Positions 6,873 to 26,114 of a stretch of 44,783 nucleotides of DNA are shown one piece after another (position 1 is the first letter of the stretch; each line of letters begins with the position of its first letter). A model generated the notes under the pieces. That model searched no databases, was not told the DNA's origin, and worked only from the letters and a program-made list of their open reading frames with translations. Source of the DNA: Chloroflexota bacterium (GTDB lineage: Bacteria; Chloroflexota; Limnocylindria; Limnocylindrales; CSP1-4); the NCBI GenBank assembly GCA_025935415.1, contig JAICVI010000003.1:1-44783 (forward strand). The letters run 5' to 3'. Both the position numbers and the translations under genes were made by a program.

Positions 6873-9800
6873 CTACCCCAGGCGCCGCATGCCGGCGTGC
6901 CCCAGCTGCCGAACCCCGGTCGGTGATTCGGGGCCTCCGGCGCGCTCGGCGACCGTCGTGAGCGGCACGATCTCGTGTGCCACCACGTTGACCACGTTCG
7001 ATTCTCGCTGGAGCTCGCCGTCCACGAGCAGCAGTGCATGTCGCCGCACCACCCCGCGCAACCGTGCCCAGGTGTCCGGCCAGAGCGTGACGTTGACCAT
7101 CCCGGTTTCGTCCTCGAGGGCCAGGAAGACCGTGCCCTTGGCCGTCATCGGGTGCTGGCGCGTCACGACCAGCCCGCCCAGGCGAACCTTTCCCGGCCGT
7201 CGATCGGCGAGGGCACCGTTCGGGACCGCCCCCAATCGATCGAGGGCCTCCCGGAACAGCCCGACGACCTGCCGCCTGGCATCCAATCCGACCACCGCGT
7301 AGGCGTCGCCGAGCCGTTCCGATTCGGTGATCGCCGGCAGGTTCGGGGCCTCCGTGGCGGGAAGTCGCAGGTCCATCGGCCGGCCCGCGGCGGGTGAGCG
7401 CTTGCCGGCAACCGACCGGGTCGCCCGAACGCTCGCTTCGCTCGCGACGCGTCGCGATGTCGTCGTCGACGAGAAGCCGCGTCCGCGCACCGTTCCCGCG
7501 ACCTCTCGGAGCTGCCACAGGAGCTCGCGCCGGGGCCGTCCCAGCGAGTCCAGCGCGCCGGTCCGGATGAGCCGCTCGATCGTCTCCTCGGGCAGCCCCG
7601 TCCGCTCGACCACGTCCGCGAGGGACACGTACGGCCCGCGCTCGAGCTCCCGGTCGAGGAGCTCCTCGTGCTGCTCGCCGATGCCCTTCACCAGCTGCAG
7701 CCCGAGTCGCACGCCCCAGCCCGTCGCGCTCTCCGCGGCCCACTGCTCCCGCGAGATTCGGCTCGGGACTACGCACGCGGAGGACGCGACCGGCACGGGC
7801 CGCTCGTCGATGCCGCAGCCTTCCGGCAACGGCTCTCCCTCCCCCGAGCCGTCGCCGATCGCCCAGCCCGGTCGCCCGACCCACTCCGTGGTGGTCTTGT
7901 AGGTCGAGGCGTTGAGGTCGACCGGCAGCACCGCGACCCCGTGGCGCTTGGCGTCGTTGACGAGCACCTCGACCGGGTAGAAGCCCATCGGCTGCGCGTT
8001 GATGAGCCCGACGAGGAACTGCGCCGGGTAGAACAGCTTGAGGAACGAGGACTCGTAGGCCGTCCGCGCGAAGGCCGCCGCGTGGGACTTCGCGAAGCCG
8101 AACGACGCGAATGCCGAGACCTGGCGGAACAGCTCCTCGGCGACCTCCGCGGTCATTCCCGGTTGTCGCATGCAGCCATCAAAGAACCGCTGGTGGAGCT
8201 TCTCCATCTCGCGGTTCGAGCGCCACGTGCCCATCGCCCGCCGGAACCCGTCCGATTCCGCGGGCGAGAAGCCCGCGACCTCGATCGCGATCCGCATGAC
8301 CTGCTCCTGGTAGAGGATCACGCCCATCGAGTCGCGCAGCACCGGCTCCAGGCTCGGGTGGAGGTACTCGACCGGCTCGAGGCCCTGCTTCCGCCGCAGG
8401 TACGGGTGAACGGCGTTGCCCTGGATCGGTCCCGGCCGGATGATCGCGACCTCCACGACCAGATCGTCGAGCGAGCTCGGCTTCGACTTCGGCAGTGTCT
8501 GCATCTGGGCCCGGCTCTCGACCTGGAAGACCCCGACCGTGTCGGCCGCCTGGAGCATCTCGAAGACCTCCGGGACCTGCTCGGGGATCGAGTCGAGGAC
8601 GACGCAGGCGCCGCAGTCGTGCTCGATCAGCTGGACGGTCTCGTCGATCGCGGCGAGCATCCCGAGCCCGAGGAGGTCCAGCTTGATGAGCTTCAGCTCC
8701 TCGACGTCGCGCTTGTCGAACTGGACGACGACGCGGTCCTGCATGGTCGCCCGCTCCAGCGGCGCGATGTCGATCAGCGGCGCCGCGGTCACGAGCATGC
8801 CGCCGCTGTGGATGCTGAGGTGGCGGGGAAAGCCGTCGATCCGGGCGCAGAACTCCAGCCAGCGCTCCCAATCGGACATGCCCTTCGTGGAGCCACCGCG
8901 GGTCTGGGCCGGCGGCTCCGGCTCGATTCTCGCCACCGAGCTGTGTGGATCTGCTCGCCCGACGCGATCCACGCCAATCCCGCCGCGGATGCTGTCCGGC
9001 TGCGGCCAGTAGTACGGCCGCCCGAGCCGGTCGGTCGATTGGTCCGTCCGGCGCGGCTCCGTCTCCGGCATACCGCTCTCGGGGTCGATGCGCCGCCCCT
9101 CCACCAGCGCCGGCGCGACCTCGAGATCGGCGACCTGCTGCCCGCTCGTTCCATCAGCCGCGCTCGTTCCATCAGCCGCGCTCGTTCCATCAGCCGCGCT
9201 CGTTCCATCAGCCGCGCTCGTTCCTCGCCAGCCGCCGGCACCTCCGCGCTGATACCCGGTCCCGCGGCCCGCCCGCAGCCACGCGACGCTCGCGGGCGTG
9301 TCGCCGGGCCCGCCCTCGTCATCCCCGCGGCCTCCGGGCCGGATCGCCGGCGGCGACTCCGGCGCCTCCTCCCACATCCCCGAGCTGCTCGGCCCCACGA
9401 GGGCAAGTGGCGCGCGTTCGTGCCAGATGTTCCTGGGGGGAACGTTAGAAGCGGGAGCTGCTTCGCCGGACGCCGTCGTGCTCGATTCGATGACGGGATC
9501 CGTCCCGTCACACGCTTGTGCCGGGACGAACGGTGGTTCGGCGTCGGCGTCGAAGCCGCCCGTAGGCCTCCCGCCGGTGGCTGACGTTCCCGCAGGGAAC
9601 ATCTGAAACATTCCGGCGCCCGCGGGGCTCCTCCCCACGACGCTGGCGCCCGCGGGGCTCCTCCCCACGACGCTGGCGTCCGCGGAGCTGCCGTCCGCGG
9701 AGCTGGCGTCCGCGGAGCTGGCGTCCGCGGAGCTGCCGTCGGCTGACTCCTTCGCCGTCGCCTCTCCCAGCCACGCGAAGGGGCGTGGCGCATGCGGATC

Positions 9801-11813: not shown

Positions 11814-11877
11814 GGCGCCCGTCCCGCGGATTCCAGGGGCTGAGGGGGTCTGAAAGGGAGCTGGAGGGCTGGTAACT

Positions 11878-11895
11878 ATAGAACAAATGTTCTAT
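11878..11895. promoter_or_regulatory. LexA (SOS) box upstream of dnaE2
   Basis: ATAGAAC-AAAT-GTTCTAT palindrome (GAAC-N4-GTTC) abutting a minus-strand TATAGT -10 (11875-11880). Confidence 0.9.
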
Positions 11896-11940
11896 CCTGC
11901 GACCACGCAACAGATTGCCGGGTCGTGGCGTCTGAAGCGC

Positions 11941-12060
11941 GTGGAAGTCGACCAGCGCAGTTGGGCCGCCGTCTTGACGAGGACAGTCGTGATGCTGAGC
12001 GTCGCGATCCTCCTCATCCTCGTCCTCCTCCCGGCGGCCCTCGCAGCGAGCAGTCGATAG
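11941..12060 (+). CDS. Putative 39-aa single-TM small protein
   Basis: Not in the ORF track. GTG...TAG encodes MEVDQRSWAAVLTRTVVMLSVAILLILVLLPAALAASSR, one clean hydrophobic helix, GC-rich third positions. No clear RBS. Confidence 0.5.
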   Translation: MEVDQRSWAAVLTRTVVMLSVAILLILVLLPAALAASSR

Positions 12061-12223
12061 CCACAGGGGAACCGGGGCGTCACCCGGAACCCGGCGAGGG
12101 CGGGCGCAAGCCAGCCATCGACCGATCGACTGCCTGGTGAGCGGGCAGCTGATCGAAGGCCAGGGACCCCGTCGCTTCTGGGGGCGACGGGGTCCCGGCA
12201 TGTCCGGCCCTACCATCGGCCGC

Positions 12224-12745
12224 GTGGATCGCCTTCGGGCCGGGGTGCTGCTGACGATCGTCCTCGTGGCGGGCTGCTCGTCCCCTGCCACGACCAAGCC
12301 GCCAGGCGCGACCTTCGCCGGTGCGACGTCGACCCCGGCTGCCGTCGCCCCGAGCCTCGACATCGAGCAGCCCGGACTCACCCCATCGACCGGCCAGACG
12401 GACACCGACTGGGGGTCGATCTGGAACGACCTCCCGCCGGGCTTCCCGCTGCCGCCGGGCGGCGAGCCCCTCGAGTCCGGCGCGGGGCCCGTCACTGCCG
12501 CCTGGACGATCGCGTCGGGCGCAGCCGCAGACCCGCTCGCGGTCGCGCAGCGCTACGTCGATGCCTTCTCCGCGGCGGGCTATGGCGGCGGGCGCGACGG
12601 CCCGCTCGAGGATGGTTCGTACACCGCGTGGGCATCGAGCGGCTACGGCTGCGACATGCTGGTCACGGCGATGCCGCGTGGCGAGGACACGCTCGTGACC
12701 GTGCTCTACGGCGCGGGCTGCCCGTTCAGCTGGCCGGAGCCCTGA
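12224..12745 (+). CDS. Hypothetical lipoprotein
   Basis: GTG 12224 lies 7 nt after TACCAT and gives MDRLRAGVLLTIVLVAG-C with a lipobox, then a P/T linker and a small domain with two Cys. Confidence 0.75.
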   Translation: MDRLRAGVLLTIVLVAGCSSPATTKPPGATFAGATSTPAAVAPSLDIEQPGLTPSTGQTDTDWGSIWNDLPPGFPLPPGGEPLESGAGPVTAAWTIASGAAADPLAVAQRYVDAFSAAGYGGGRDGPLEDGSYTAWASSGYGCDMLVTAMPRGEDTLVTVLYGAGCPFSWPEP

Positions 12746-12759
12746 GGGGAGCGAGCGCC

Positions 12760-13002
12760 TCAGTCGTAGAGGCGCTCGAGGTGCCACGAGCCGGTGGTCC
12801 GGTCGCAGTAGATGAGGGCCAGCCAACGCTCGCCGACGACCTTGTAGTAATCCCGGGCGATCGGCTCTCGCCACCAGGACTCCTCGACCCGCCAGCGATT
12901 GCAGACCTCGACCCGCTCGCGGCGGCCGTTCCAGGCCATCACGAGGTTGCCGTCGTCGAACTCCACGGAGATCTCCGGGTGGGCGCGGAGCAGGCGGGTC
13001 AC
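12760..13002 (-). CDS. Stand-alone ImuB C-terminal-like protein (DUF6504-like)
   Basis: WRVEESWW...RDYYKV...LIYCDR...WHLERLYD resembles the ImuB C-terminal WW...RDY...W pattern; GTGA overlap with the imuB stop. Confidence 0.75.
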   Translation of the reverse strand: MTRLLRAHPEISVEFDDGNLVMAWNGRRERVEVCNRWRVEESWWREPIARDYYKVVGERWLALIYCDRTTGSWHLERLYD

Positions 13003-14288
13003 CGCGTGGCTCCGGGGCCCGTGACGGTCGCGGCACGGGAGCGAGATTCGGCGCTCACGTCACGGAAGGCCCAGCGATGCTCGGGCAGGGGCGCCTCGGG
13101 ATCGAGGACCTCGATCCGCCGGATCTTCTCGTCGCCGTAGGTCAGGGCGAGGCGCGCGAGCTGCCACGCGAGCCGCGCGCCGTGGAGGGCCTGGGGCACG
13201 AACAGCGGCAGCTGCTGGCCGACCGCCGGTGTCGCGCCGGAGAGCTCCAGCTCCAGCCGGGTGACGGCGGCAGGCGGCGGGGTTCGCTCGAGCTTGGCGA
13301 GGAGCAGGCGCTCGATGGCCTCGGCGTCGGCGGTCGGCTCGGGGAAACGGGTCTCGACGGCGAGCTGGTCCGGCGTGCCCGCGCGCGCGAAGGCGAGGTC
13401 CAGCTCCAGCCGGAGGCGGCCCTGCTCCGCCGCAAGGCCCCGTGCGGCGAGGCTCGCACCGAGGGCCACGGCAAGCCGGCGGAGCACGAACCGGATCGCC
13501 TCCAGCTCGGCGACGGCGGGCTCGATGGGCAGGCCCAGGACGAGGCGCTCCGGCGCGCGGCGGGGCCGGAATGGCTCCAGCTCCTCGCCACGGGAGCGAG
13601 ACCCGATCCTCCGGCCCTCCTCGCCGAACCGTGCCACCAGCGCCGAAGCGGCCAGCTCCGCGACCTGGCCGATCTCTCGCAGCCCGAACCGGCGCAGCCG
13701 GGCGCGGACGTCCGGCTCGGCCGAGAGCAGCGACGCTGGAAGGGGAGCGAGGAATCTCGCTTCCGCACCCGGCGGCACGGAGATGAGCTCCCCCGGCTTC
13801 GCGGCGAGGGCCGCCACGGTCGCCGCGAAGCGGGTGCCGGCGATCCCTGCGCGCGGCCGGCCGGCGAGCGGCTCCTCGAGCGCCGCGCCGATGCGCCCGG
13901 CCATGACCGGCTCGGGACCCCAGAGGCCCTCGAGCCCGTCGACCTGGGCCTCCAGCAGCCCGAATGAAACGTCGGTCGGATCGGACGTGCCGGCGACCGC
14001 CGGGCTGAACCCGGCGAGCCGCTCGAAGGCCGCCTCGAGCTCGTCCCGATCAGCCTCGGGCTGCGGGTCGAAGAAGGTCGCCTCGGGTGCCAGCCGATGG
14101 GCCGACCCGAGCGGCATCCCGCGCCGGACGCCGAGCGCCCGCGCGGCGGGGTCCGCGTCGAGCACGGTCCCGGTCGACCACGGCTTCCCGCCGAGCACCA
14201 CCGGCCCCGCCGGCCACGAGCCGGAGGGCAGGCGTCGCCGCGCGAGATCGAGGAGGAGATGTTGGCGATGGAGATGAAGGAGTCGCAT
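12999..14288 (-). CDS. imuB: ImuB, inactive Y-family polymerase-like mutasome scaffold
   Basis: ARALGVRRGMPL, FSPAV, GLEGLWG, RFLAPLP, FGLREIG, LVARFG; beta-clamp motif QLPLF; follows imuA. Confidence 0.88.
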   Translation of the reverse strand: MRLLHLHRQHLLLDLARRRLPSGSWPAGPVVLGGKPWSTGTVLDADPAARALGVRRGMPLGSAHRLAPEATFFDPQPEADRDELEAAFERLAGFSPAVAGTSDPTDVSFGLLEAQVDGLEGLWGPEPVMAGRIGAALEEPLAGRPRAGIAGTRFAATVAALAAKPGELISVPPGAEARFLAPLPASLLSAEPDVRARLRRFGLREIGQVAELAASALVARFGEEGRRIGSRSRGEELEPFRPRRAPERLVLGLPIEPAVAELEAIRFVLRRLAVALGASLAARGLAAEQGRLRLELDLAFARAGTPDQLAVETRFPEPTADAEAIERLLLAKLERTPPPAAVTRLELELSGATPAVGQQLPLFVPQALHGARLAWQLARLALTYGDEKIRRIEVLDPEAPLPEHRWAFRDVSAESRSRAATVTGPGATR

Positions 14289-14378
14289 CGATCGTTTTCC
14301 CGGGCACTGGGACAACGGGGGCTGGGGCGGTTGGTTGATCTCGCCGTTTCGCTGCGTTGCGACCGTCGTCGGGCTTGT

Positions 14379-15473
14379 TCACGTACGCGACGTACGCTCG
14401 CGCGCCCGTCTCGGCCGCGCCTTGCGCGCCCGTCTCGCCGCGCCTTGCGCTCCAGCCAGCTGAACCAACCGCGGTTCCGACGTGGCCTCGGCGAGGAGCT
14501 CGGGGTGGCGGAGGCAGGCGTCGCGCTCTCCGCCGTCGGCGTAGAGGATCCGCAGCGTCGCCCGCCGCCCTGGTGGGCCGGCGCGATTGCGCGCGACGAC
14601 CACCTCCGTTCTCTGGCCGACGACGTCTCGACCGAGCCGGATCCACGACCGACGCGAGAGCTCGAGGCGGATCCCGGTCGCCTCGCCGATCGCGCCATCG
14701 AGGCTCCCGGAGCGTCCGCTCGGTGGCTCCAGCACGACGAGGCTGATCCCGGCTCGCCGCGCGAGCGCCGCAAGCCGTCCGAGTCGATCGCCGAATCTCG
14801 CCCCCGTGACGCTGGTCTCCTTGCCACTGCTCGCCTTGCCGCTGCGCTCCTTGCCGCTGCTCGCCTTGCCGCTGCTCGCCTTGCCGCTGCTCGCCTTGGC
14901 GCGACGCGCCTCGATGGGCAGGTCGATGACCAGCAGGTCCACGGCGCGTCCCGCGAGCAGCGCGCCGGCGATGGCGAGCCCTTCCTCCGGGTCCGCCGGC
15001 GTCAGCACGACCAGCCACTCCGGCTTGACGCCGCGCGCCACCGCCTCGACCGGATCGAGCGCCGCCGCGAGGTCGAGCCACGCGACGATCGAGCCCGCCG
15101 CCTGGGCGGCCGCGACCAACCGCAGCGCCAGCGTGGTCCGCCCGCTCGAGACCTCGCCGCGGACCGCGAGCCCCATGCCGCGAGGCAGGCCACCGGGGCC
15201 GAGGATCGCATCGAGCTCGGCGAAGCCGGTCGAATGCACCCGATCGTGATCGATCGACCGGTCGATCGCAGGGCTGCCCGCGGGGCCGCGCTCCGGATCC
15301 GCATCCGGGCTTTCAACCGGCACCGTCGCGAGCGCGCCGATCACCTCGCCGGCAAATCGATCGCCCGCGAACCGGCTCGATCCCCGCTCGCCTGTGAACC
15401 CGGGCGCCGCCGCACCCCAGCGCGAGCGAAGGGTCGCCAGCGCGGCGGTGAGGTCGGGAGAGGGAGCAGCCAT
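14379..15473 (-). CDS. imuA: ImuA, RecA-like mutasome accessory protein
   Basis: STGFAELDAILGPGGLPRG, degenerate Walker A GEVSSGRTT, AWLD, LLVID; LexA box directly upstream; precedes imuB. Confidence 0.85.
   Translation of the reverse strand: MAAPSPDLTAALATLRSRWGAAAPGFTGERGSSRFAGDRFAGEVIGALATVPVESPDADPERGPAGSPAIDRSIDHDRVHSTGFAELDAILGPGGLPRGMGLAVRGEVSSGRTTLALRLVAAAQAAGSIVAWLDLAAALDPVEAVARGVKPEWLVVLTPADPEEGLAIAGALLAGRAVDLLVIDLPIEARRAKASSGKASSGKASSGKERSGKASSGKETSVTGARFGDRLGRLAALARRAGISLVVLEPPSGRSGSLDGAIGEATGIRLELSRRSWIRLGRDVVGQRTEVVVARNRAGPPGRRATLRILYADGGERDACLRHPELLAEATSEPRLVQLAGAQGAARRARKARPRRARERTSRT
14820..14894. repeat. 15-bp tandem repeat x5 in imuA (ASSGK)
   Basis: CTTGCCGCTGCTCGC-like units at 14820, 14835, 14850, 14865 and 14880. 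Confidence 0.92.
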
Positions 15474-16137: not shown

Positions 16138-17154
16138 ATGCCCCAGGGCCTCGATCAGGATCTCGTCCTCGTCGCCGAGGACGACGCCTCCAACCGCGCC
16201 CTGCTCTCGCGCCTCCTGGAGCGCGCCGGCTACCGCTCCATCTCCGTCGCCGATGGCCGGGACGCGATCAAGGCCGCGGTGGACGAGGCGCCGAACCTGG
16301 TCCTCCTCGATGTCGGCCTGCCGGGCCTCAACGGGCTCGATGTCTGTCGCCGCCTCCGCGCCGACCCTCGCACCGTCGCCCTCCCGATCATCCTCGTCAC
16401 CGGCCAGACCGCGTCACGTGACGTCGTCGCCGGGCTCGATGCCGGCGCCGACGACTTCGTCCGCAAGCCCTACGACGAGGCCGAGCTGATGGCCCGCATC
16501 CGCAGCGTCATGCGCCTCGCGCGCGTGACCGCCGAGATGGTCGGTGCGCATGGCGTCATCGCCGCGCTCGCGAATGCCGTCGAGGCAAAGGACGCCTCCA
16601 CGGAGCTGCACTGCCAGCGCCTTGCCGGGCTCGCCCACCAGCTGGGCATGTCCGCCGGCCTCGAGCCGGCCAGCCTGAAGGGGCTCGTGTTCGGCGCCCT
16701 CCTGCACGACATCGGCAAGATCGGCGTTTCGGACGCGATCCTCAACAAGCCCGGGCCGCTGAGCCGCGAGGAGTGGGCCGAGATGCGCCTCCATCCGCTC
16801 ATCGGCGAGCGCATCTGCGAACCCCTCGCGACCGCGTCGCAGTTCTCATCGATCGTTCGGCACCACCACGAGCGCTGGGACGGCGCCGGCTATCCGGACG
16901 GGCTCCGAGGCGAGCGAATCCCCATGGGCGCGCGGATCGTCGGGCTCGTCGATGCGTTCGACGCGATCATCCACGAGCGGCCCTACCGCCCCGCACGATC
17001 GGTCGAGGAAGGCGTCGAGGAGCTGAAGCGCGAGGCCGGCTCGCAGTTCGACCCCGACCTGGTCCGGCTGTTCCTGCCGATGGTCGAGCAGGAGCACCAG
17101 GAGATCCGCACCCCGGCCGTCCGGGCCCTCGAGGCGCTGCGCGCAGCGGTCTGA
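16138..17154 (+). CDS. Response regulator with HD-GYP c-di-GMP phosphodiesterase domain (RpfG-like)
   Basis: REC motifs (VAEDD, LLDVGLP, GADDFVRKP) plus LLHDIGKIG, HHHERWDGAGYP and RPYR. Confidence 0.93.
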   Translation: MPQGLDQDLVLVAEDDASNRALLSRLLERAGYRSISVADGRDAIKAAVDEAPNLVLLDVGLPGLNGLDVCRRLRADPRTVALPIILVTGQTASRDVVAGLDAGADDFVRKPYDEAELMARIRSVMRLARVTAEMVGAHGVIAALANAVEAKDASTELHCQRLAGLAHQLGMSAGLEPASLKGLVFGALLHDIGKIGVSDAILNKPGPLSREEWAEMRLHPLIGERICEPLATASQFSSIVRHHHERWDGAGYPDGLRGERIPMGARIVGLVDAFDAIIHERPYRPARSVEEGVEELKREAGSQFDPDLVRLFLPMVEQEHQEIRTPAVRALEALRAAV

Positions 17155-17158
17155 CGAG

Positions 17159-19714
17159 ATGACCCTCGACACCCTGCTCAGCGCCGCACTCGACCTGGCC
17201 TTCTTCGCGGTCTTCGCCCTCAGCCTCGTCGACTGGGTCCGTCACCGCGGCGCGATCCGTCGAGCCGTGGTCCTGGGCTTTGCGAGCACCTCGATCGTGC
17301 TCGGTGCGCCGCTGGTCGCACGGGTGCTGCCATCGATGGCCGGCGCCATCAACGCGCTCATCGTGCCGGCGCTGCTCGCACAGCCGCTCCTCGCCCTGTG
17401 GCTCGTCAGCTACATGCGCAGGATCCCGCGGGCAGTCCTCGGCGCAACGACGCTCGCGTTCGTGGTGCTCACCGCCGGCCTGTTCCTGCTCGCCTCCGGA
17501 GGCGTCGAGCCTCGCTCGCCAGCCGTCGTGGCCTACGCCCTCGCCGCGCTCGCCTATTTCGCCCTCGTCGACGGCGCCGCCGCGATCGGCTTCGCGCTGG
17601 CGGCGCGCGGGCGTGCCGGGGCATCGCGATCACGCCTGCTCACGGCGGCCCTGGCGACAGCCCTCCTGGGTCTGGCCGTCGTCCTGCTGCTCGGTGGCGG
17701 GGTCCTCACCGCACCCGGCTCGGATGCCGCAATTGCCTCCGGCGTCATGGTCCGCGTCATCGCCCTGCTGGCCGCGCTCGGCTACCTCGCCGCGTTCGCG
17801 CCGCCGCGGGCGCTCCGGCGGTTCAGCCAGCAGGTCATCGCCTATGACTTCATCCGGAACCTGAACGCGATGCCGTCCGGGGCGGACGTGGAGAGCATCT
17901 GGCGCCTCCTCGAGTCGACGGTCGAGCGCGCCTCGGGCGCCACCCGTGTCGCCGTGGTCGAGCATCCGGCCGTGACCTCGGAGGTCGCCGCGTCGGTTCC
18001 CACGGTCGCGGCCGCCCGAACGGTCTCGGTGCCATTCGACTCCGCGCGCTGGCCCGACGCCCGACTCGAGCTCGACCTGCCCCGCCATTCGCTCTTCGTC
18101 GAGGACGACCTCGAGCTCACCGGGCTGCTCCTCGATCGCAGCGTGCGGGCCGCCGAACGTGAGGCCTTCCTGGTCGAGCGCGAGCACCTCATCACCGAGC
18201 TCCGCGCGGCGAGCGCCGCCAAGAGCGACTTCCTCGCCGCCATGAGCCACGAGCTCCGCACGCCGCTCAACGCGATCATCGGCTTCTCGGAGCTCCTCAC
18301 CGAGGACGGACCCGATGCCGCCGACCCGGAGACGGTCGTGAGCTACGCCGGCCACATCCACGGCTCCGGGCTGCACCTGCTCGAGCTCGTCAACGACGTC
18401 CTCGACCTCGCCCGGGTGGAGGCTGGCCGCCTCGACCTCAAGCCGGTCCCCGTGGACCTCGGGGCGCTCATCGCCCAGACGGTCGCCGCGGTGCGGCCGC
18501 TCGCCGACGAGAAGCACCTCAGCGTCGTCCAGGACCTGGAGGACGTCACGATCGACGCGGACCCACCGCGGGTGCGCCAGATCGTGCTGAACCTGCTCTC
18601 CAACGCCATAAAGTTCACGGGCGACGGGGGTGAGATTCGAATCTCGCTCGCGACCGACGACAACGGCGCCGCGCAGCTCCGCGTGGCCGACACGGGACGC
18701 GGCATCGCCGCGGGGGACCTTGACCGCATCTTCGAGGCCTTTCAGCAGGGCAGCGAGGACGCGATGACGCCGCACCACGAGGGCACGGGCCTGGGGCTCG
18801 CGCTCACCCGACAGCTCGTCGAGGCGCACGGCGGCACCGTCAGGGTCACCTCGGAGATCGGCGTGGGCAGCGAGTTCAGCGTCACCCTGCCCGCGCAGGG
18901 TCTCGCCGAGGTGACCGACGCCGCGCGGCCGCCTGCGATCCCGACCGATCGGCCCAGCGTGCTCGTCATCGAGGACGACCATGCCGCGCAGGAGCTGCTG
19001 CGCCGGCACCTCGAGGGCGCGGGCTACGCCGTCGTCACCACGTCGAGCGGCAAGCAGGGCCTCGCCTGGATGGCGGAGATCCGCCCCGACGCGGTGCTGC
19101 TGGACATCCTGCTGCCCGACCTGGATGGCTGGGAGATCCTGCAGCGCGCCAAGAGCGACCCGACGACGCGGTCGATCCCGATCATGGTCGTCTCGATCGT
19201 CGACGATCGACAGCTTGGCCTCGCCCTCGGCGCGGTCGACTACTTCGTCAAGCCCGTCTCCCGCGAGCTGCTGCTCGAGGCGCTCGGTCGCCTGACCTTC
19301 ACGACGAAGGTCCAGACGCGAACGGTCACGGCGCTCGTCATCGATGCCGACCCCGAGGCGGCTGCCCGCTACCGGGAGATCCTCGAGCCGGATGGCTTCC
19401 GGGTCATCGACGCCGTCACCGGCGCCGATGGGCGACGTCGCGCCGCCGATGAGCAGCCCGACCTGATCCTGCTCGACGCGCTGCTGCCGGACATCCATGG
19501 CTTCGAGCTGGCCAACGAGCTCCACCACGACCCGGCGACCGCCACGATCCCGATCTGGCTCACGACGCCGGCGGGCCTCGAGCCCGAGGCGAAGCTCCAG
19601 CTCAACGGCACCGTACAGGGCATCCTCGAGCGGGGCGACGAAGCCCTCGCGGCCCTCCGCAAGTGGCTGGAGACGCCGACGCGCGTCCCCGGGCTGAACA
19701 AGGTTCGGGCATGA
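17159..19714 (+). CDS. Membrane hybrid histidine kinase (multi-TM, HisKA, HATPase, two REC domains)
   Basis: Hydrophobic N-terminus, MSHELRTPLNAIIGF, NLLSNAIKFT, DTGRGI, GTGLGL and two C-terminal receivers. Confidence 0.93.
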   Translation: MTLDTLLSAALDLAFFAVFALSLVDWVRHRGAIRRAVVLGFASTSIVLGAPLVARVLPSMAGAINALIVPALLAQPLLALWLVSYMRRIPRAVLGATTLAFVVLTAGLFLLASGGVEPRSPAVVAYALAALAYFALVDGAAAIGFALAARGRAGASRSRLLTAALATALLGLAVVLLLGGGVLTAPGSDAAIASGVMVRVIALLAALGYLAAFAPPRALRRFSQQVIAYDFIRNLNAMPSGADVESIWRLLESTVERASGATRVAVVEHPAVTSEVAASVPTVAAARTVSVPFDSARWPDARLELDLPRHSLFVEDDLELTGLLLDRSVRAAEREAFLVEREHLITELRAASAAKSDFLAAMSHELRTPLNAIIGFSELLTEDGPDAADPETVVSYAGHIHGSGLHLLELVNDVLDLARVEAGRLDLKPVPVDLGALIAQTVAAVRPLADEKHLSVVQDLEDVTIDADPPRVRQIVLNLLSNAIKFTGDGGEIRISLATDDNGAAQLRVADTGRGIAAGDLDRIFEAFQQGSEDAMTPHHEGTGLGLALTRQLVEAHGGTVRVTSEIGVGSEFSVTLPAQGLAEVTDAARPPAIPTDRPSVLVIEDDHAAQELLRRHLEGAGYAVVTTSSGKQGLAWMAEIRPDAVLLDILLPDLDGWEILQRAKSDPTTRSIPIMVVSIVDDRQLGLALGAVDYFVKPVSRELLLEALGRLTFTTKVQTRTVTALVIDADPEAAARYREILEPDGFRVIDAVTGADGRRRAADEQPDLILLDALLPDIHGFELANELHHDPATATIPIWLTTPAGLEPEAKLQLNGTVQGILERGDEALAALRKWLETPTRVPGLNKVRA

Positions 19715-20534: not shown

Positions 20535-21332
20535 ATGAACGCGCGCAACCGGCTGGCAGCGCTGCTGGCCGCAGGATCCCTGGTGATGGCGGTCGCCGCC
20601 GTGGCATCGGCTGGCTCCCCGACCTACAGCGTCACGGTGACGAAGTCGGCGACCCCGGCGAACGTCCCGAGCGGCGGCGGCACCGTGGTCTACACGGTCG
20701 CGGTGCAGGCGACGGGCTCAGGCTTCTTCGGCACCGTTTCCGTCGACGACGGGATGGCCGGTTGCACCCTCGGCGCGCCGAGCGGCGATACCGACTCCGA
20801 TGGCAACCTGGACCCCGGCGAGACCTGGTCGTACAGCTGCTCGGTCAACGGCGTGATGCCCGGTGCCCAGAACACGGCCTCCGTGAACGCCTGCCACAAC
20901 AGCAGTGGCGCCTGCAACCAGAGCACCCATGACGCCACCGCCACCAGCAACACGGTCACGATCGGCCAGGGTCCGGACATCACCGCGGCCCCGACAACGG
21001 AGCCGTCTGCGGTGCCCACGGCGGTTCCCACCGCGGTCCCCACGGCCGTCCCGACCGCCGTCCCGACCGCCGTCCCGACCGCGGTTCCCTCCGCCCCCGT
21101 CGTGACGGAGCCGCCGACTTCCGCGGCCGTTCCGACGCCGTCCGCCAACCCGACTGCCGACGTCGGGGACGACGTGGACGCGACGCTGCCCAGCAGCGAC
21201 ACGGCCATCGGTGGCGGCGCCACGCAGCCGCCGGATCGCAGCTGGATGCTGGTCATCGCGCTCGGCATGCTGCTCGCGAGCATCATCGTGATGAACCCGT
21301 CACGGACCGTCCGCGAGGACGAGCGCCGGTAA
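20535..21332 (+). CDS. Secreted Ig-like (DUF11/DUF7507-like) surface protein with PTAV repeats and C-terminal anchor
   Basis: Signal peptide; VTKSA...VVYTV...GDTDSDGNLDPGETWSYSC; (PTAV)6; TLPSSDT, then TM and Arg-containing tail. Confidence 0.8.
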   Translation: MNARNRLAALLAAGSLVMAVAAVASAGSPTYSVTVTKSATPANVPSGGGTVVYTVAVQATGSGFFGTVSVDDGMAGCTLGAPSGDTDSDGNLDPGETWSYSCSVNGVMPGAQNTASVNACHNSSGACNQSTHDATATSNTVTIGQGPDITAAPTTEPSAVPTAVPTAVPTAVPTAVPTAVPTAVPSAPVVTEPPTSAAVPTPSANPTADVGDDVDATLPSSDTAIGGGATQPPDRSWMLVIALGMLLASIIVMNPSRTVREDERR

Positions 21333-22219: not shown

Positions 22220-23374
22220 GTGACAGGGCAGCGGCCCTCGCGGCACGCCGAGGAGGACCCGCGGCGAGGCGCACTGCCCGTCGCGGAGCGACGCACCGAC
22301 GGCGGCGCAGACCGCGGCGCGCAGCTTGAGGAGCTGTCCGTCCACGCGGTGATCCGGCCTCGCGGCGGCCGTCTCGGCGGGTCGAGCGTGGTGGCGATCC
22401 TTGCCCTGGTCGCGCTGCTGGCAGCCGGATTCGGCGTCCTCGGAGGCCGTCCCCAGCCGTCCCTGCCCGGCATCGCGGCGTCCCTGCTGCCCAGCCTGCT
22501 CGCCAACGGAACCAACGCGCCAGCCGCGTCGCCGGCGCGAACGCCGTCGGTAACCCCCGCGTCGGCCTGCGGAGCGCTTCCCCGAGACGGGCCACCCGGG
22601 GTCATGCTCACCGTCGGCGATCACCTCATGGCCGGCCAGGTCTCGGCCATCGACGACCCGAACGCGACGCCCGGGCCGCATCGCGAGCCCATCGAGATCC
22701 CGGCGGACGCAACGGCCGATCTGCGGATTGCGGCAGGCGCCTGCGCAACCAGCTGGCACATCGCCGTCTGGTCTCCATCCGACGGCCAGCTCTACCCGGT
22801 CGACGTCGTGTCGAATCCGGACCGGGACCCGGCGGTCGCCCTGCAGAACGAGTTCTCCCTGGTCCTCGCGCCGTTCCGCACCATCATCGCCGAACAGCTC
22901 GAGCTGCATGCCGAGCTCCAGGTTGGGGACCGGGACATCCTGGCCCGCTGGCCGATCCGGGTCCTGCCATTCGATCGACCCCAGCCGCGCCTCCGGATCA
23001 GCCGGAACCAGGTCATCCCGCTGGTCGAGGGCTGCGACGTCGTGCTGACCTTCGGCAACGGCTACGAGGAGCCGATGGCCTGCAGCGACGACCTCAGCGC
23101 GGAGCTGCCGCCGGCGACGCGGGTGGCGCCCGGAACCGAGATGTCGCTGGACTTCGACGGCTGGTCGATCGGTGACACGATCGCCTACTGCGGGTCGAGC
23201 CTGGAGCTCGCATTCGTCCTGCGGTCGGCTCCGGGCTGCGAGCAGCATCCGCCACACGGGCGCTTCTTCCACGCGCCCGAGGCGGGCGATTGGACGATCG
23301 CCCTGGGCGCCTGCGCGATCAACGCCGGCAACAGGATCTGCGGGACCTGGTTCGTCGACCTCGACACCCGCTAG
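22220..23374 (+). CDS. Hypothetical membrane-anchored extracellular protein, Cys-rich
   Basis: GGAG RBS before GTG; one TM (SVVAILALVALLAAGFGVLGG); beta-rich ectodomain with 8 Cys. Confidence 0.65.
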   Translation: MTGQRPSRHAEEDPRRGALPVAERRTDGGADRGAQLEELSVHAVIRPRGGRLGGSSVVAILALVALLAAGFGVLGGRPQPSLPGIAASLLPSLLANGTNAPAASPARTPSVTPASACGALPRDGPPGVMLTVGDHLMAGQVSAIDDPNATPGPHREPIEIPADATADLRIAAGACATSWHIAVWSPSDGQLYPVDVVSNPDRDPAVALQNEFSLVLAPFRTIIAEQLELHAELQVGDRDILARWPIRVLPFDRPQPRLRISRNQVIPLVEGCDVVLTFGNGYEEPMACSDDLSAELPPATRVAPGTEMSLDFDGWSIGDTIAYCGSSLELAFVLRSAPGCEQHPPHGRFFHAPEAGDWTIALGACAINAGNRICGTWFVDLDTR

Positions 23375-23403
23375 CGCCGACGCAGCGGCGCGCCGCCGGG
23401 ACC

Positions 23404-25311
23404 TCAGCCCTCGGCGATGACCCCGATCGAGACGCGGAAACCGGCCCGCCGCTGGAGCGGCGGCATGGCCGTCGACTGCCCGACAGGGCCGGAGGCGTCG
23501 AAGACCTTGCTCCACTCCTCGTTGAAGATGTCGAAGTCGGCCGAGTCCCGCAGCGACCAGTTCGCCCAGACGACCTTGTCGATCGAGGAGCCGGCCTCCT
23601 CCAGGCGCGCCTTGAGGTTCTCGAGGCACTGCCGGGCGTGCTCCTTGACGCCACCGGGCACGACGCGCTTGCCGTCCGCATCGACCGGCCCGACCGCCGA
23701 GATGTAGACCATGCCACCCGCCCGCGTGGCCTTGCCGCGACCCATCGCGAGGACAGACGGCGGCACCGCGTCCGCGTCCTTGAGCCCGAAGCGGCCCTTG
23801 AGCGTCCGGGTGGGCTTGTCCGGGTCTTCCGGCGGAATCCCGAACTCGCCCTTGGGGAGCTCCACCCCCGCCCGCGCGAACTGGCCCATGAACGTGGGCC
23901 GGACGCCGGTGGGGGCCAGATCGCCCTGGATCTTGCCGTCGACGACCGCGGTCTGCTGGTAGGTGAAGATGTCCTGGGTCAGGATCTCGTCGTCCTCGAT
24001 CCCGTAGACCTCGGTGATGTTCGTGACCTTGCGCGAGCCGTCCTTGAGCCGCGCGGTGTGGACGATGAGGTCGACCGCCGACGCGATCTGCTCGCGGATC
24101 GCGCGGAGCGGCAGCTCGTAGCCGGTCATGAGGACCATCGTCTCGAGGCGTCGGAGCATGTCCTTCGGCGTGTTCGCGTGGCCCGTTGAGAGCGAGCCGT
24201 CCTGGCCGGTGGTCATCGCCTGGAGCATGTCCAGGGCCTCGCCCGAGCGACACTCGCCGACGATGATCCGGTCGGGGCGCATGTGCATGGCGTTGCGCAG
24301 GAGGTCGCGGATCGTGATCTCGCCCTGGCCCTCGATGTTGGCCGGGCGCGCCTCCAGCGTGATCACGTGCTCCTGGCGCAGCTGCAGCTCGGCCGCGTCC
24401 TCGATGGTGACGATCCGCTCGTCGTTCGGGATGAACGACGAGACGACGTTCAGGAAGGTCGTCTTGCCGGAGCCCGTGCCACCGGACACGAAGATGTTCA
24501 GCCGCGCCGCCACGCACGACCGCAGGAACTCGAACATCTCCGGGGTCGCCGTCCCGAAGGAAATCAGGTTGTCGACCGTGTAGGGCGTCTTCGAGAACTT
24601 CCGGACGGTGATGACCGGGCCGATCAGCGAGAGCGGCGCGATGATCGCGTTGACGCGCGAGCCGTCGGGCAGGCGGGCGTCGACGCGCGGGCTCGTCTCG
24701 TCGATGCGCCGCCCCAGCGGGGTGATGATCCGGTCGATGATCCGGAGGACGTGCTCCTCGTTCAGGAACGCGGTGTCGACCTTCAGGATCTTGCCCTTGC
24801 GCTCGATGTAGATGTGATCGGGGCCATTGACCATGACCTCGGTGATGGTCGGGTCGTTGAGGAGCGGCTCGAGGGGCCCGAAGCCCGTGATCTCGTGGAT
24901 CATCTCCTCGACGAGGCGGACGCGCTCGTCCCGGGTGACGGCGAAGTTGTTCGCCTCGATGACCCGGTCGACGATGCCCTCGATCTTCGTCCTGGTGTCG
25001 GTCGCCGTGCCGTCGAGGAGCGTGTCGAAGGCGTTGATGACCTCGCCCTGCATCTTGATGCGGAGGTCGTGGATCATCTCCTCGCGAGCGACGGTCCTCG
25101 GGCCCGAGGGCTTGACGGGCTTGGCCTCGGGGATGATCGCGGGGAGATTCGAGCCTGGCGGCGCGTCGGGAAGCGCCGCCGCCCCATTGCCGGACGCATT
25201 GGCCGAGGCATTGGCCGACACATTGGCCGACTCGGCGGGTCGGGTGGCGGTGCCGGCCGCGGCGGCCTCAGCCTCCTGGGCCGCCTTGAGCTGCCGTTCG
25301 AGCAGCGACAT
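23404..25311 (-). CDS. cpaF: CpaF/TadA-family pilus assembly ATPase fused to a C-terminal RidA/YjgF-like domain
   Basis: GFGPLEPLL, VDARLPDGSRVN, Walker A GGTGSGKT, TIEDAAEL, MRPDRIIVGE, STGHAN; the last ~115 aa read GGMVYIS...ARQCLENLKARLEEAGSSIDKVV...DFDIFNEEW. ATG 25311 follows GGGGAG. Confidence 0.9.
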   Translation of the reverse strand: MSLLERQLKAAQEAEAAAAGTATRPAESANVSANASANASGNGAAALPDAPPGSNLPAIIPEAKPVKPSGPRTVAREEMIHDLRIKMQGEVINAFDTLLDGTATDTRTKIEGIVDRVIEANNFAVTRDERVRLVEEMIHEITGFGPLEPLLNDPTITEVMVNGPDHIYIERKGKILKVDTAFLNEEHVLRIIDRIITPLGRRIDETSPRVDARLPDGSRVNAIIAPLSLIGPVITVRKFSKTPYTVDNLISFGTATPEMFEFLRSCVAARLNIFVSGGTGSGKTTFLNVVSSFIPNDERIVTIEDAAELQLRQEHVITLEARPANIEGQGEITIRDLLRNAMHMRPDRIIVGECRSGEALDMLQAMTTGQDGSLSTGHANTPKDMLRRLETMVLMTGYELPLRAIREQIASAVDLIVHTARLKDGSRKVTNITEVYGIEDDEILTQDIFTYQQTAVVDGKIQGDLAPTGVRPTFMGQFARAGVELPKGEFGIPPEDPDKPTRTLKGRFGLKDADAVPPSVLAMGRGKATRAGGMVYISAVGPVDADGKRVVPGGVKEHARQCLENLKARLEEAGSSIDKVVWANWSLRDSADFDIFNEEWSKVFDASGPVGQSTAMPPLQRRAGFRVSIGVIAEG

Positions 25312-25893
25312 CGACTCTTTCGACTCCCCCGCCTGCGGAGCGCCTCGACGCGAGCTTTGATCCGTCTGATCTTCGCGCTCGGTCCCGATCGGGATCAACC
25401 GTCCGAAGAACGCGCTGAGAATACATGCCGCCGCCCGGGCTCCCGTTCCAATCGGAAGTACTACGGGCGATGCGCCGCGGCGGCGGCTTCGCGGGACGGC
25501 ACGCACCGGCGTGCTCGTTGGGGTGTCGATCAGGGGCGGCGTGCATCCGCCTCGCGAGCGCTTCCGTCATCTACCAGCCCCCGCGGTATTGGACTGGCCG
25601 AAGGACCTCGTGGCGGGCTTCGCGGGCGGCGCCGGCGTCGGGTCGAGCGTGGGCGGATGCCCGGAACGCCCTCGGCGCCCCGCGCAGTCTCGTCCTGTAC
25701 CGCGCCCGGCGGTAGACGGAGGAGACCGGCCGCCCAAAGGCCCGCTGTACGGCCAGGGCCGATATTCGGAGGCAAGTGCCCCGCCGGTCGGAGCCACATG
25801 TGGCCACGGAATGCCATCCGGCATGCCCGCACCACGATTGCCGGCCGCCGTGGAGCGAGGAACGGGCCTTTGCTATGCTCCGCGCTCCGGCAT

Positions 25894-25969
<76 letters not shown>

Positions 25970-26008
25970 ACTTCCAGCGCCGGCACAGAAGAGGCGGAAC
26001 CGACGAAG

Positions 26009-26050
26009 GTGCAGAACCAGATCGCGGCCCTCGCGCTTACCACCGGGTAG
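26009..26050 (+). promoter_or_regulatory. Candidate leuS attenuator leader peptide MQNQIAALALTTG
   Basis: GTG...TAG with CTC and CTT Leu codons, followed by alternative hairpins and a terminator upstream of leuS. Confidence 0.45.
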
Positions 26051-26085
26051 CCCGGCGCACGAAGGTGCGTCAGAGCTGCCCTTGC

Positions 26086-26114
26086 AACCCCTTGCCGATC
26101 GGCGAGGGGTTTTT
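26086..26114 (+). terminator. Intrinsic terminator between tRNA-Ala and leuS
   Basis: AACCCCTTGCC-gatc-GGCGAGGGGTT stem running into a T5 tract. Confidence 0.85.

Follow-up and report, generated by a model that had tools for sequence, protein, structure and literature searches.

The window, as we call the whole 44,783-nucleotide stretch of DNA that was analysed, carries on its minus strand a gene whose product joins a CpaF/TadA-type ATPase to a Rid-fold domain. The fusion is a single continuous frame; opened at the first GTG, the ORF call spans 23404..25506 (700 amino acids), and translation from the ATG at 25311 yields a product of 635 amino acids. Because the N-terminal MSLLERQ is kept in an alignment of 114 full-length homologues, 23404-25311 is the likely gene. 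Its features are as follows.

23404..25311, minus strand: whole gene, CpaF/TadA-type ATPase plus Rid-fold domain; 635 amino acids and a stop codon (23404-23406)
25087..25311, minus strand: N-terminal segment, residues 1-75; a short conserved helix, then an Ala/Pro-rich variable stretch
23860..25284, minus strand: region aligned to Caulobacter CpaF; residues 10-484 against residues 15-490 of the 9e24 chain
24049..24888, minus strand: Pfam T2SSE core, residues 142-421 (PF00437, E 6e-60, 203.3 bits, cut-off 24.9)
24457..24483, minus strand: Walker A GGTGSGKTT, residues 277-285; assigned by sequence, invariant in alignment A2
24163..24165, minus strand: Lys383, the equivalent of Caulobacter CpaF Arg387, mapped by alignment
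23737..23859, minus strand: tether, residues 485-525; pLDDT below 55 in both models, dN/dS 0.14-0.50
23821..23847, minus strand: motif EFGIPPEDP within the tether, residues 489-497
23407..23736, minus strand: Rid (YjgF/L-PSP) fold domain, residues 526-635; from Pfam, AF2, Foldseek and the trimer model
23476..23487, minus strand: PVGQ, residues 609-612; Gly611 lies at the position of the RidA catalytic Arg105, in the predicted trimer interface

An earlier interpretation (the sequence-only reading) had described one open reading frame uniting a CpaF ATPase with a RidA-like region, with which both the frame and the Pfam matches agree, and had named a lost stop codon or a misassembly as what would undo it. 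Logan contigs from three soil-metagenome studies span the junction (23300-23994 with 0 and 1 differences, 23671-24010 with 0 differences) and contain no insertion or deletion where the ATPase and Rid parts meet, one of the runs used being possibly the source of the window itself. These junction-bridging contigs, together with the retention of the fusion in relatives, rule out both artefacts; the CpaF-Rid fusion is a real gene. That it represents a conserved CpaF paralogue with a dead Rid domain is, in our estimation, nearly certain. A literature search returned no published description of a CpaF-Rid fusion.

Tad (Flp) pili are driven by CpaF, a hexameric motor ATPase. The ATPase part of the fusion is complete, as had been proposed: in addition to the T2SSE match and the GSGKT of Walker A, the remaining conserved ATPase boxes (Walker B, Asp and His) are present here and invariant in alignment A2. 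The closest solved relative is 9e24_A (phmmer E 2.3e-115; the next family, FlaI, gave 5.5e-43), the match to TIGR03819 (TadA family conjugal transfer-associated ATPase) scored 326.9 bits, under the curated cut-off of 373.15, and the ATPase part shares 60-66% identity with canonical cpaF from the same class. The bifunctional Tad motor of Caulobacter crescentus, CpaF/TadA (PDB 9e24-9e29, 8rkd, 8rjf; PMC12019362, PMC11300603), shares Walker A and the other boxes, the loop 8 GRRxD and the pore-loop E..G with the fusion, whereas the fusion has an extra 150 residues of tether and Rid domain, is a second copy outside the tad locus and does not have a fixed residue at the R387 site. The highest dN/dS in the gene (0.42-0.60) falls on residues 1-75.

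Between the two halves the sequence-only reading had placed a P/D/K-rich linker. A linker does exist, but it is not a simple spacer: EFGIPPEDP shows little or no variation across 114 fusions, and [ED][FY]GIP is kept in 14 named MAG fusions.

Residues 528-633 match Ribonuc_L-PSP (PF01042, E 3.1e-13, 50.2 bits, cut-off 27.3) from profile position 14 onwards. AF2 over the Rid domain gave blocks with pLDDT 84-95, and Foldseek returned 177 matches at E 0.001 or better, RidA/YabJ being at E about 2e-11 (5hp7, E 2.3e-11, TM by target 0.90, rmsd 1.5 A); PF00437, PF01042 and the RidA matches of Foldseek thus bear out both halves and the YjgF fold. The loss of the catalytic signature had also been read correctly from the letters. 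When aligned to the solved RidA 2csl (E 9.8e-14), PVG stands opposite PAR, which places Gly611 at the Arg105 site and makes PVGQ the counterpart of the RidA P-x-R, and RVSIGVIA stands opposite RVEVACVA, VSIGV taking the place of the terminal E-I-E; the bona fide RidA of the same genome reads PARS and VEVEA. The equivalents of Glu120 (VSIG in place of VEVE) and Tyr17 (MGRGKA in place of PYSQ) are gone as well, the Arg105 equivalent is absent in every fusion examined, and P[VIL]GQ, found in 14/14 named MAG fusions, is conserved in the 114-fusion alignment. Arg105 (E. coli numbering) is essential for RidA imine deaminase activity (PMC4433059), and the tail scored 49.5 bits against the RidA subfamily TIGR00004, below the cut-off of 106.25. 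Judged by these residues, the Rid domain is enzymatically disabled. Besides P[VIL]GQ, the motifs VWANW, NEEW and GGM are invariant in the tails, as is QRRAGFR (residues 620-626), which carries a two-residue insertion absent from stand-alone relatives.

The RidA/Rid family (YjgF/YER057c/UK114; PMC4433059) has the fold, the Pfam match and the predicted trimer interface in common with the tail, which departs from RidA in its three replaced residues, its sub-cut-off TIGR00004 score and its fusion to an ATPase. In Rid4 and Rid7 the Arg is replaced by Trp and the Glu is retained (PMC4433059), so that the tail belongs to neither. Its nearest relatives are stand-alone Rid paralogues of the same class (loci L048-L053, about 125-135 amino acids, 40-46% identity), which share with the tail NEEW, R[IV]S[IV]..IAEA and the missing Glu120; the stand-alone proteins keep YSQA and PPARQGA with its Arg, whereas the tail has PVGQ, the two-residue insertion (PPLQRRAG) and a remodelled N-terminus. 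The 3x-RidA tandem proteins, found as weaker matches of about 400 amino acids in three stretches, also contain fused Rid domains, but are covalent trimers of active-type domains without an ATPase (PMC4433059).

The tail was found on 1522 proteins among 2146 candidates of 349-1112 amino acids, and all 120 listed of the 1522 combine PF00437 with PF01042; PF27713 is among the precomputed domains of the database fusion proteins. A search for the same fusion in related genomes, which had been recommended, found it in 45 of the 60 sampled genomes of the window's family, the tail-plus-tether matches starting at tail residue 1-3, in 0 of 140 sampled from four other families of the class and in 0 of 285 sampled elsewhere in the phylum, counts that are not independent of one another because the compared genomes are kin. 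Among sampled genomes, then, the fusion is confined to the window's family, a group of uncultured soil Chloroflexota. A search of genome contigs gave at least 14 loci (the 600 stretches listed were mostly the general motif IVTIEDAA), and two of these loci, on short contigs of 2965 and 9455 bases, bear non-Chloroflexota bin labels that we take as putative binning noise. The fusions form one clade (SH-aLRT 100), are kept across at least 12 sampled genera and evolve faster overall. In a rough Nei-Gojobori comparison of three pairs, dN/dS was 0.15, 0.49 and 0.41 for the Rid part against 0.15, 0.13 and 0.25 for the ATPase, values by which the tail is under purifying selection.

The sequence-only reading had remarked that no tadB, tadC, cpaE or flp lies next to the fusion; among the 29 window ORFs scanned with Pfam there was indeed no tadB/C, cpaE, cpaB or flp, and no tad-locus setting was seen in the loci of five relatives. 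The main tad locus, with its own tail-less cpaF, exists elsewhere, in the order flp-cpaB-tadZ-cpaF-tadB-tadC. In the window's own genome it is split over two contig ends, contig C232 carrying a kinase, flp, cpaB, tadZ and, at its end, an N-terminal fragment of cpaF, and contig C214 carrying a tadB fragment at its end, tadC and a DUF192 gene; the relative G005 has the whole locus, with a cpaF of 473 amino acids. A PF00437 family search of the own genome had recovered the fusion only, and the idea that a second cpaF was missing was dropped when a protein search found the canonical gene; a second match was present in 44 of the 45 sampled fusion-bearing genomes. T2SSF matches in the 81%-complete own genome numbered only two, tadB and tadC. 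The fusion is an extra CpaF paralogue located away from the genome's one tad locus. It adjoins leuS in part of the genus only (G000, G005, G013 and G016) and lies in unrelated contexts in G006 and G008. The connection to DNA uptake that had been drawn from comEA and comEC, 6-10 kb from the fusion in the window, was not upheld; the 6-kb distance reflects the leuS neighbourhood and not a conserved pairing.

In Caulobacter, CpaF with the substitution R387A, like CpaF carrying mCherry at its C-terminus, loses retraction while extension persists, and the hexamer is proposed to flip, such that its C-terminal face must engage the platform for retraction. The source (10.64898/2026.02.24.707734) is an unreviewed preprint based for the most part on AlphaFold3 models, with a small number of mutants from a single species, and some retraction was still hinted at in its R387A mutant. 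The position equivalent to R387 is Arg in 33/33 canonical copies (35 loci read), and in 42 fusions (45 loci read) it is R in 12, K in 12, P in 12, N in 4, Q in 1 and S in 1. Metagenome fusions (119/121) have K in 71, R in 38, A in 5, T in 2, and E, D and V in 1 each; because K or R occupies the site in 109/119, it is not clear that function is lost there in the window's protein and its near kin. Only 7 of 204 columns, this position among them, are fixed in the canonical set but vary among fusions; another of the 7, column 479, falls in the C-terminal motif. Part of the variability is explained by the faster overall evolution of the fusions. The contacts of the extension face with the platform, loop 8 GRRxD and the pore loop E..G according to PMC12019362, are kept: the pore loop E-G-x-G is present in 42/42 fusions, loop 8 G-R-R-x-D in 34 of the 36 that were matched (the other two have G-R-H-x-D, and 6/42 were unmatched by the pattern), and G200, R201, R202, D204, E327 and G330 are invariant in alignment A2.

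A model of three copies of the tail gave an ipSAE of 0.90 (best of 3 controls, 0.00), the mark applied having been reached by 20/30 solved one-chain pairs and 1/23 single chains, a calibration from which three copies differ. The runs agreed in at least 90% of contacts, with partner pLDDT of at least 87, and the tail is probably a homotrimer with the canonical kind of Rid interface, although this pass may reflect what the model learned from the many Rid trimers already solved. With the fold, the lost Arg, the purifying selection and this model, the earlier proposal of a non-catalytic Rid module forming two trimers per hexamer is a reasonable one. Full-length AlphaFold2 (40-sequence alignment) reached a mean pLDDT of 52.2, with the ATPase core below 50 and only the Rid part confident; a fold of this quality is unusable for placing the tail on the ATPase.

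We propose that the fusion is an accessory, extension-biased Tad motor whose retraction face is capped, an explanation to which, taken whole, we assign a probability of roughly 0.42. The fused motor would dock on the same TadB/TadC platform via its N-terminal (extension) face, the contacts of which are kept; each hexamer would carry two trimers of Rid domains above its C-terminal face; and the capped motor would extend pili without retracting them, or would need the cap to be moved away before retracting, while canonical CpaF stayed reversible alongside it. That the fusion works on the Tad machine is likely; that it is biased towards extension because its C-face is capped is a tentative step, somewhat short of even odds. 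In the engineered CpaF-mCherry, as reported in 10.64898/2026.02.24.707734, a folded C-terminal domain likewise abolished visible retraction and left extension intact in Caulobacter; the fusion differs in being natural, conserved and probably trimer-forming, with an invariant tether motif and an uncapped paralogue alongside. Against capping, a useless retraction face would be expected to decay further than is seen: fusions and canonical copies alike retain the beta13-beta14 turn RLKDGSRK, which that preprint also describes as specific to retraction, and the fusion clade conserves the C-terminal motif. In addition, about 35 residues of tether may give the cap room to swing clear.

Other readings of the same data were weighed against capping. 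The dead Rid domain might keep a pocket between subunits and bind there a small molecule that changes ATPase activity or cap position, so linking metabolism with pilus dynamics; this main idea of the sequence-only reading is compatible with capping, and we consider it unlikely without being far-fetched. The motifs standing in for the RidA active site (P[VIL]GQ, VWANW, NEEW, GGM) are invariant and lie in the predicted subunit interface, the usual site of Rid pockets, and Rid4-Rid7, also lacking the Arg, are thought to have other roles (PMC4433059). Trimer formation alone explains such interface conservation, however, known Rid ligands are improbable partners of a pocket devoid of the Arg (the carboxylate clamp), Glu120 and Tyr17 equivalents, and metabolic genes are not conserved neighbours in the loci compared. 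A module for assembly or localisation, in which Rid trimers clamp the hexamer or dock a partner via QRRAGFR and leave direction unaffected, has a smaller chance still. Its invariant, exposed QRRAGFR is not listed among the interface residues of the trimer model, as expected of a docking surface, and the tether motif is invariant too, but a residue left off that list is merely of uncertain status, no conserved neighbour gene suggesting a partner was found in the loci, and the site-specific relaxation at the R387 position would be left unexplained.

It is less probable again that the orphan ATPase drives a process other than the Tad pilus, for instance the import of DNA with ComEA/ComEC. No genome examined has the gene inside its tad locus, comEA and comEC are within 10 kb in the window, and in Micrococcus luteus pili of the Tad type are reported to function in transformation (PMC6667448, PMC8467076); the neighbourhood nevertheless varies between relatives, the extension-face contacts are kept, tadB and tadC are the only platform genes found in the 81%-complete genome, and the ATPase part stays close to the canonical cpaF of the class. 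A neutral or decaying fusion is very improbable: although 15 of the 60 sampled family genomes yielded no fusion, the G018 copy is broken by stop codons and the L047 tail looks frameshifted, the fusions constitute a single clade kept in many genera, with a tail dN/dS below 0.5 and long invariant motifs.

If the fusion is extension-biased by its cap, nature may have produced in it a one-way form of a motor that usually runs in both directions. It bears on how a single ATPase can power both extension and retraction of Tad pili, and on the C-face proposal in particular: evolution would have put a folded, probably trimeric domain on the C-face and retained it within one family of abundant soil bacteria, with the R387 site released and an uncapped copy in the same genomes. 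The contrast between canonical copies and fusions at the R387 position is new, and the tail adds a putative structural or regulatory use for Rid domains without the catalytic Arg. A fuller two-motor system, in which duplication and capping produced a dedicated extension motor, the uncapped CpaF can still retract and the Rid pocket or tether motif switches platform occupancy, is doubtful; were it true, it would be a natural replicate of the mCherry capping and an independent evolutionary test of motor inversion. PilB and PilT of type IVa pili, separate extension and retraction motors that meet the platform with opposite faces (10.64898/2026.02.24.707734), provide an analogy only, since both motors here are CpaF paralogues and the proposed specialisation is via a cap rather than a dedicated retraction ATPase.

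A scan of 23200-26100 found 0 promoters and 0 terminators, a result that says little at 70% G+C. One RNA-library run (X15) contained only pieces 90-95% alike, in the conserved ATPase core, and left most of the tail without coverage. The insert in the long DnaE2-like neighbour, considered and rejected as an intein, is a low-complexity repeat.

The analysis shows that the minus-strand gene at 23404-25311 encodes a CpaF paralogue to which a dead Rid-fold domain is tethered, and that this fusion is conserved, selected and restricted to one family. A single open frame extends from position 25506 down to 23404; because the N-terminus MSLLERQ is kept across 114 full-length homologues, the start was placed at ATG 25311, giving a 635-aa protein (P0001). 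Pfam assigned T2SSE to residues 142-421 (E 6e-60, 203.3 bits) and Ribonuc_L-PSP to residues 528-633 (E 3.1e-13, 50.2 bits, cut-off 27.3). Against solved structures, residues 10-484 aligned with Caulobacter CpaF (9e24, E 2.3e-115), the next family being FlaI (5.5e-43), and the last 130 residues gave RidA-type matches (best 2csl, 9.8e-14). When residues 481-635 were modelled with AlphaFold2, the Rid part was confident (blocks of 84-95 pLDDT) and the first 35 residues poor; Foldseek gave 177 matches to the tail model with E no higher than 0.001, placing it on structures of RidA, YabJ and PH0854 at E about 2e-11, with a TM (by target) of 0.75-0.90 and an rmsd of 1.5-1.8 A. The single-frame joining of CpaF to a YjgF-type fold, proposed in a sequence-only reading, is thus borne out for both halves. 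Literature searches found no paper on a CpaF-Rid/RidA fusion architecture; the accessible part of a Rid family survey (PMC4433059) mentions fusions in general and as Rid tandems.

An artefactual origin was ruled out by the abundance of tail-bearing proteins and by indel-free junction contigs. With residues 490-635 as query, and candidates restricted to 349-1112 aa, 1522 of 2146 proteins matched at the threshold of E 0.001 or better; among the matches listed, PF00437 and PF01042 were both present in 120 of 120, and most of these measured 606-668 aa. Near-identical DNA occurred in 14 soil-metagenome runs from 6 studies. Contigs from 3 of the 6, one of which may be the window's own source, spanned the Rid-tether-ATPase junction free of indels, with 0 and 1 differences over 23300-23994 and 0 over 23671-24010, and these independent soil contigs answer the concern over misassembly or a lost stop. 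Rough Nei-Gojobori dN/dS was computed by region for the window gene against three relatives: the Rid part gave 0.15, 0.49 and 0.41, the tether 0.14, 0.50 and 0.27, the ATPase part 0.15, 0.13 and 0.25, and the N-terminal 75 residues 0.42-0.60.

Aligned with 2csl, the tail places PVG opposite PAR and RVSIG opposite RVEVA; against the canonical RidA of the same genome (contig C117; PYSQ, PARS, VEVEA), the equivalents of Tyr17, Arg105 and Glu120 are all gone. In the accessible part of the Rid survey, Arg105 is essential to imine hydrolysis and its absence sets Rid4-Rid7 apart from RidA and Rid1-3 (PMC4433059). The suggestion that the domain is non-catalytic therefore stands, and the Rid part is, judging by these alignments, not expected to be a deaminase. 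Across 114 metagenome fusions, and equally in 14 fusions of named MAGs, the motifs P[VIL]GQ, VWANW, NEEW and RRAGFR vary little or not at all; the active-site replacement is fixed, not random. The tail's closest relatives are same-class stand-alone Rid proteins (about 125-135 aa, 40-46% identical), which share with it NEEW and a C-terminal R[IV]S[IV]..IAEA and retain YSQA and PPARQGA, which indicates that the tail came from an Arg-bearing Rid protein and that the Arg was lost at or after fusion. The tail also gained a two-residue insertion (PPLQRRAG).

In the window's own genome (81% complete, 2.39 Mb, 260 contigs), the fusion was the only T2SSE gene found by Pfam family search, and a protein search located a fragment of 48% identity where contig C232 ends. 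The tad genes of this genome lie on two contigs:

C232: HisKA_3 kinase; 62-aa Flp pilin; CpaB/RcpC; receiver-ParA TadZ; start of cpaF (first 184 residues, then off the contig)
C214: starts within tadB; then tadC, followed at the end of the locus (L032, 2347-3703) by DUF192 and a GT87 glycosyltransferase

A prepilin peptidase lies on contig C170. The nearly closed relative G005 holds an entire tad locus with a 473-aa tail-less cpaF (1.7e-125 against Caulobacter CpaF), and its fusion is on a different contig. The main tad locus with its own cpaF was thereby found, across C232 and C214 in the window's genome and whole in G005; it is shown to be separate from the fusion and to have a single platform gene pair. 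A second CpaF match was present in 44 of 45 sampled fusion-bearing genomes, the exception being G126; among those listed, frames were mostly about 470-540 aa (longer with stop read-through), and identity to the fusion was 59-67% up to residue about 492. A quick maximum-likelihood tree (LG+G4) was computed from 25 rows and 381 columns, with a third paralogue from another family as root. In it, the 10 fusions formed one clade (SH-aLRT 100), canonical copies of the window's family grouped with those of a second family (96), and those of two further families grouped together (100); fusion branches were longer, and the three groups had no supported order. A single origin by duplication, with later losses, fits best.

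A full or nearly full-length fusion was found in 14 of 18 other genomes of the genus. Copies vary: that of G018 (C1:274509-276106) is broken by TGA stops, the tail at locus L047 appears frameshifted, and G204 has two full-length fusion genes (C9:202594-204333 and C2:17821-19623). Gain, loss and decay of the fusion all occur inside the family. Tether plus tail served as query on 200 other genomes sampled evenly from the class, a fusion-type match being one that starts within the first three residues of the query. Relatives proved to keep the parts fused in 45 of 60 sampled genomes of the window's family; the four other families gave 0/7, 0/66, 0/66 and 0/1, the two counts of 0/66, and these only, depending partly on eight genomes flagged as unpublished (G092, G116, G130, G136, G112, G121, G147, G181). 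Those four families also gave seven weaker tail matches, which belong to stand-alone Rid genes and begin at tail residue 32-46. In a sample of 300 other genomes of the phylum, 11 of the 15 that belong to the family had a fusion-type match, against 0 of the 285 outside it. Against 1.84 billion representatives of 50% identity clusters, the tail matched one full-length protein (630 aa) and many fragments, with known triple-Rid tandems from about 1e-28 down. The fusion family thus has a narrow range, both in sequence and in taxonomy, but is common in soil data.

The accessible part of a 2026 preprint (10.64898/2026.02.24.707734) proposes that CpaF flips, its N-terminal face docking on CpaG/CpaH for extension and its C-terminal face for retraction; there, both R387A and a C-terminal mCherry meant to block that face abolished visible retraction and kept extension in Caulobacter. 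Mapped via PDB alignments, R387 corresponds to Lys383 in P0001 and to Arg in the G005 canonical paralogue. Across 35 loci with canonical copies (four families) and 45 with fusions, 33 of 33 canonical copies found carried Arg at this position; the 42 fusions found had R12, K12, P12, N4, Q1 and S1, although the flanking STGHAN and DMLRRL are invariant. Metagenome fusions, closer to the window, gave K71, R38, A5, T2, E1, D1 and V1 (119 of 121). Residues 106-484 were then screened in 33 canonical copies and 41 fusions, with two rows of the third paralogue and the frameshifted L047 excluded. Among 204 columns at least 97% constant in canonical copies, the major residue fell to 50% or less in fusions at only seven, including position 383 and position 479, the latter in a C-terminal motif also named in the accessible part of the preprint (10.64898/2026.02.24.707734); no column in the screen showed the reverse pattern. 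The comparison indicates relaxation that is site-specific at the residue singled out by the inversion model. Residues 120 (Glu) and 180 (Val), in the N-terminal domains and off the C-terminal face, are also canonical-invariant and fusion-variable (window about 24952-24954 and 24772-24774). Extension-face platform contacts, as given in the accessible part of PMC12019362, are kept: the pore-loop E-G-x-G is present in 42 of 42 fusions, and loop 8 reads G-R-R-x-D in 34 of 36 matched fusions and G-R-H-x-D in two, the pattern matching none of six others.

Our leading reading, at a probability of roughly 0.4, is that two Rid trimers would sit over the CpaF hexamer's C-terminal face and bias the fused motor to extension, perhaps switchably through a remnant of the Rid pocket or the EFGIPPEDP tether motif (residues 489-497). 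Three copies of tail residues 30-155 were modelled with three controls; their ipSAE values of 0.94, 0.90 and 0.87 have a median of 0.90, and the best control scored 0.00. In calibration the mark was attained by 20 of 30 proteins whose solved structures are one-chain pairs and by 1 of 23 whose structures are single chains; three copies and a custom alignment depart from that calibration. At least 90% of contacts agreed between runs, with partner pLDDT at least 87. Because Rid trimers are abundantly solved, the predicted trimer shows likeness to them, not proof that this copy binds. The predicted interface includes GGM (532-534), VWA (581-583), F593, N597 and GPVGQSTAMPPL (608-619), these named residues being the invariant ones; QRRAGFR (620-626) is not among them, which weakly suggests that it may be exposed. 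Against capping by Rid trimers, the beta13-beta14 turn RLKDGSRK is conserved equally in fusions and canonical copies, and the window's own clade retains a basic residue at 383. Gating of the motor by a ligand, which could coexist with capping, is somewhat unlikely, and a pure assembly or docking role for the tail is more doubtful still.

A non-pilus role for the fused ATPase is improbable. No pilus gene adjoins the fusion in G000, G005, G013, G016, G006 or G008, and the sequence-only reading had pointed to DNA uptake through the nearby comEA and comEC. The fusion is flanked by leuS and tRNA-Ala in G000, G005, G013 and G016; in G008 its neighbours are an HxlR regulator and GtrA-type genes, and in G006 an amino-acid ABC transporter, a PLP enzyme and a two-component pair. 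The window's comEA-comEC-holA block therefore belongs to the leuS neighbourhood, not to the fusion, and the DNA-uptake link is unsupported. That the fusion has no function at all is the least credible account, with very little probability. In G006 only (L026, G006:C6, 2625-7421), the fusion is convergent on the gene of the PLP-dependent enzyme (PALP), itself preceded by the transporter and an ArsR-type regulator; PLP enzymes produce enamines that RidA removes.

Other genes of the window are:

2124-5948, minus: 1274-aa protein, a possible surface nuclease, with OB folds and a lamin-tail domain
6873-15473, minus: DnaE2-like polymerase (6873-11813, 1646 aa), imuB-like gene (IMS, 12999-14315) and imuA-like gene (RecA fold, 14379-15473)
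16138-19714, plus: response regulator with HD_5/HD domain, then hybrid histidine kinase
20535-21332, plus: 265-aa Pro/Thr-repeat protein whose N-terminus is signal-like and whose C-terminus has a hydrophobic anchor
22220-23374, plus: 384-aa protein with N-terminal membrane anchor and without Pfam family

The last is convergent on the fusion gene across a 29-base gap; in G005 its position is taken by a homologue of 45% identity, and in G016 a homologue of 26% identity lies near the fusion, with none by the fusion in G006, G008 or G013. The DnaE2-like polymerase has a low-complexity insert of roughly 400 residues (about 560-980) between NTPase and finger domains; an intein was rejected, the insert being repetitive, with SSADA and TSAADG among its short tandem repeats. 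In G000, G005 and G013, about 2.6 to 3.9 kb separate the response regulator and hybrid kinase from the fusion, and we take the regulator's HD_5/HD domain to be of HD-GYP-like type, possibly a cyclic-di-GMP phosphodiesterase.
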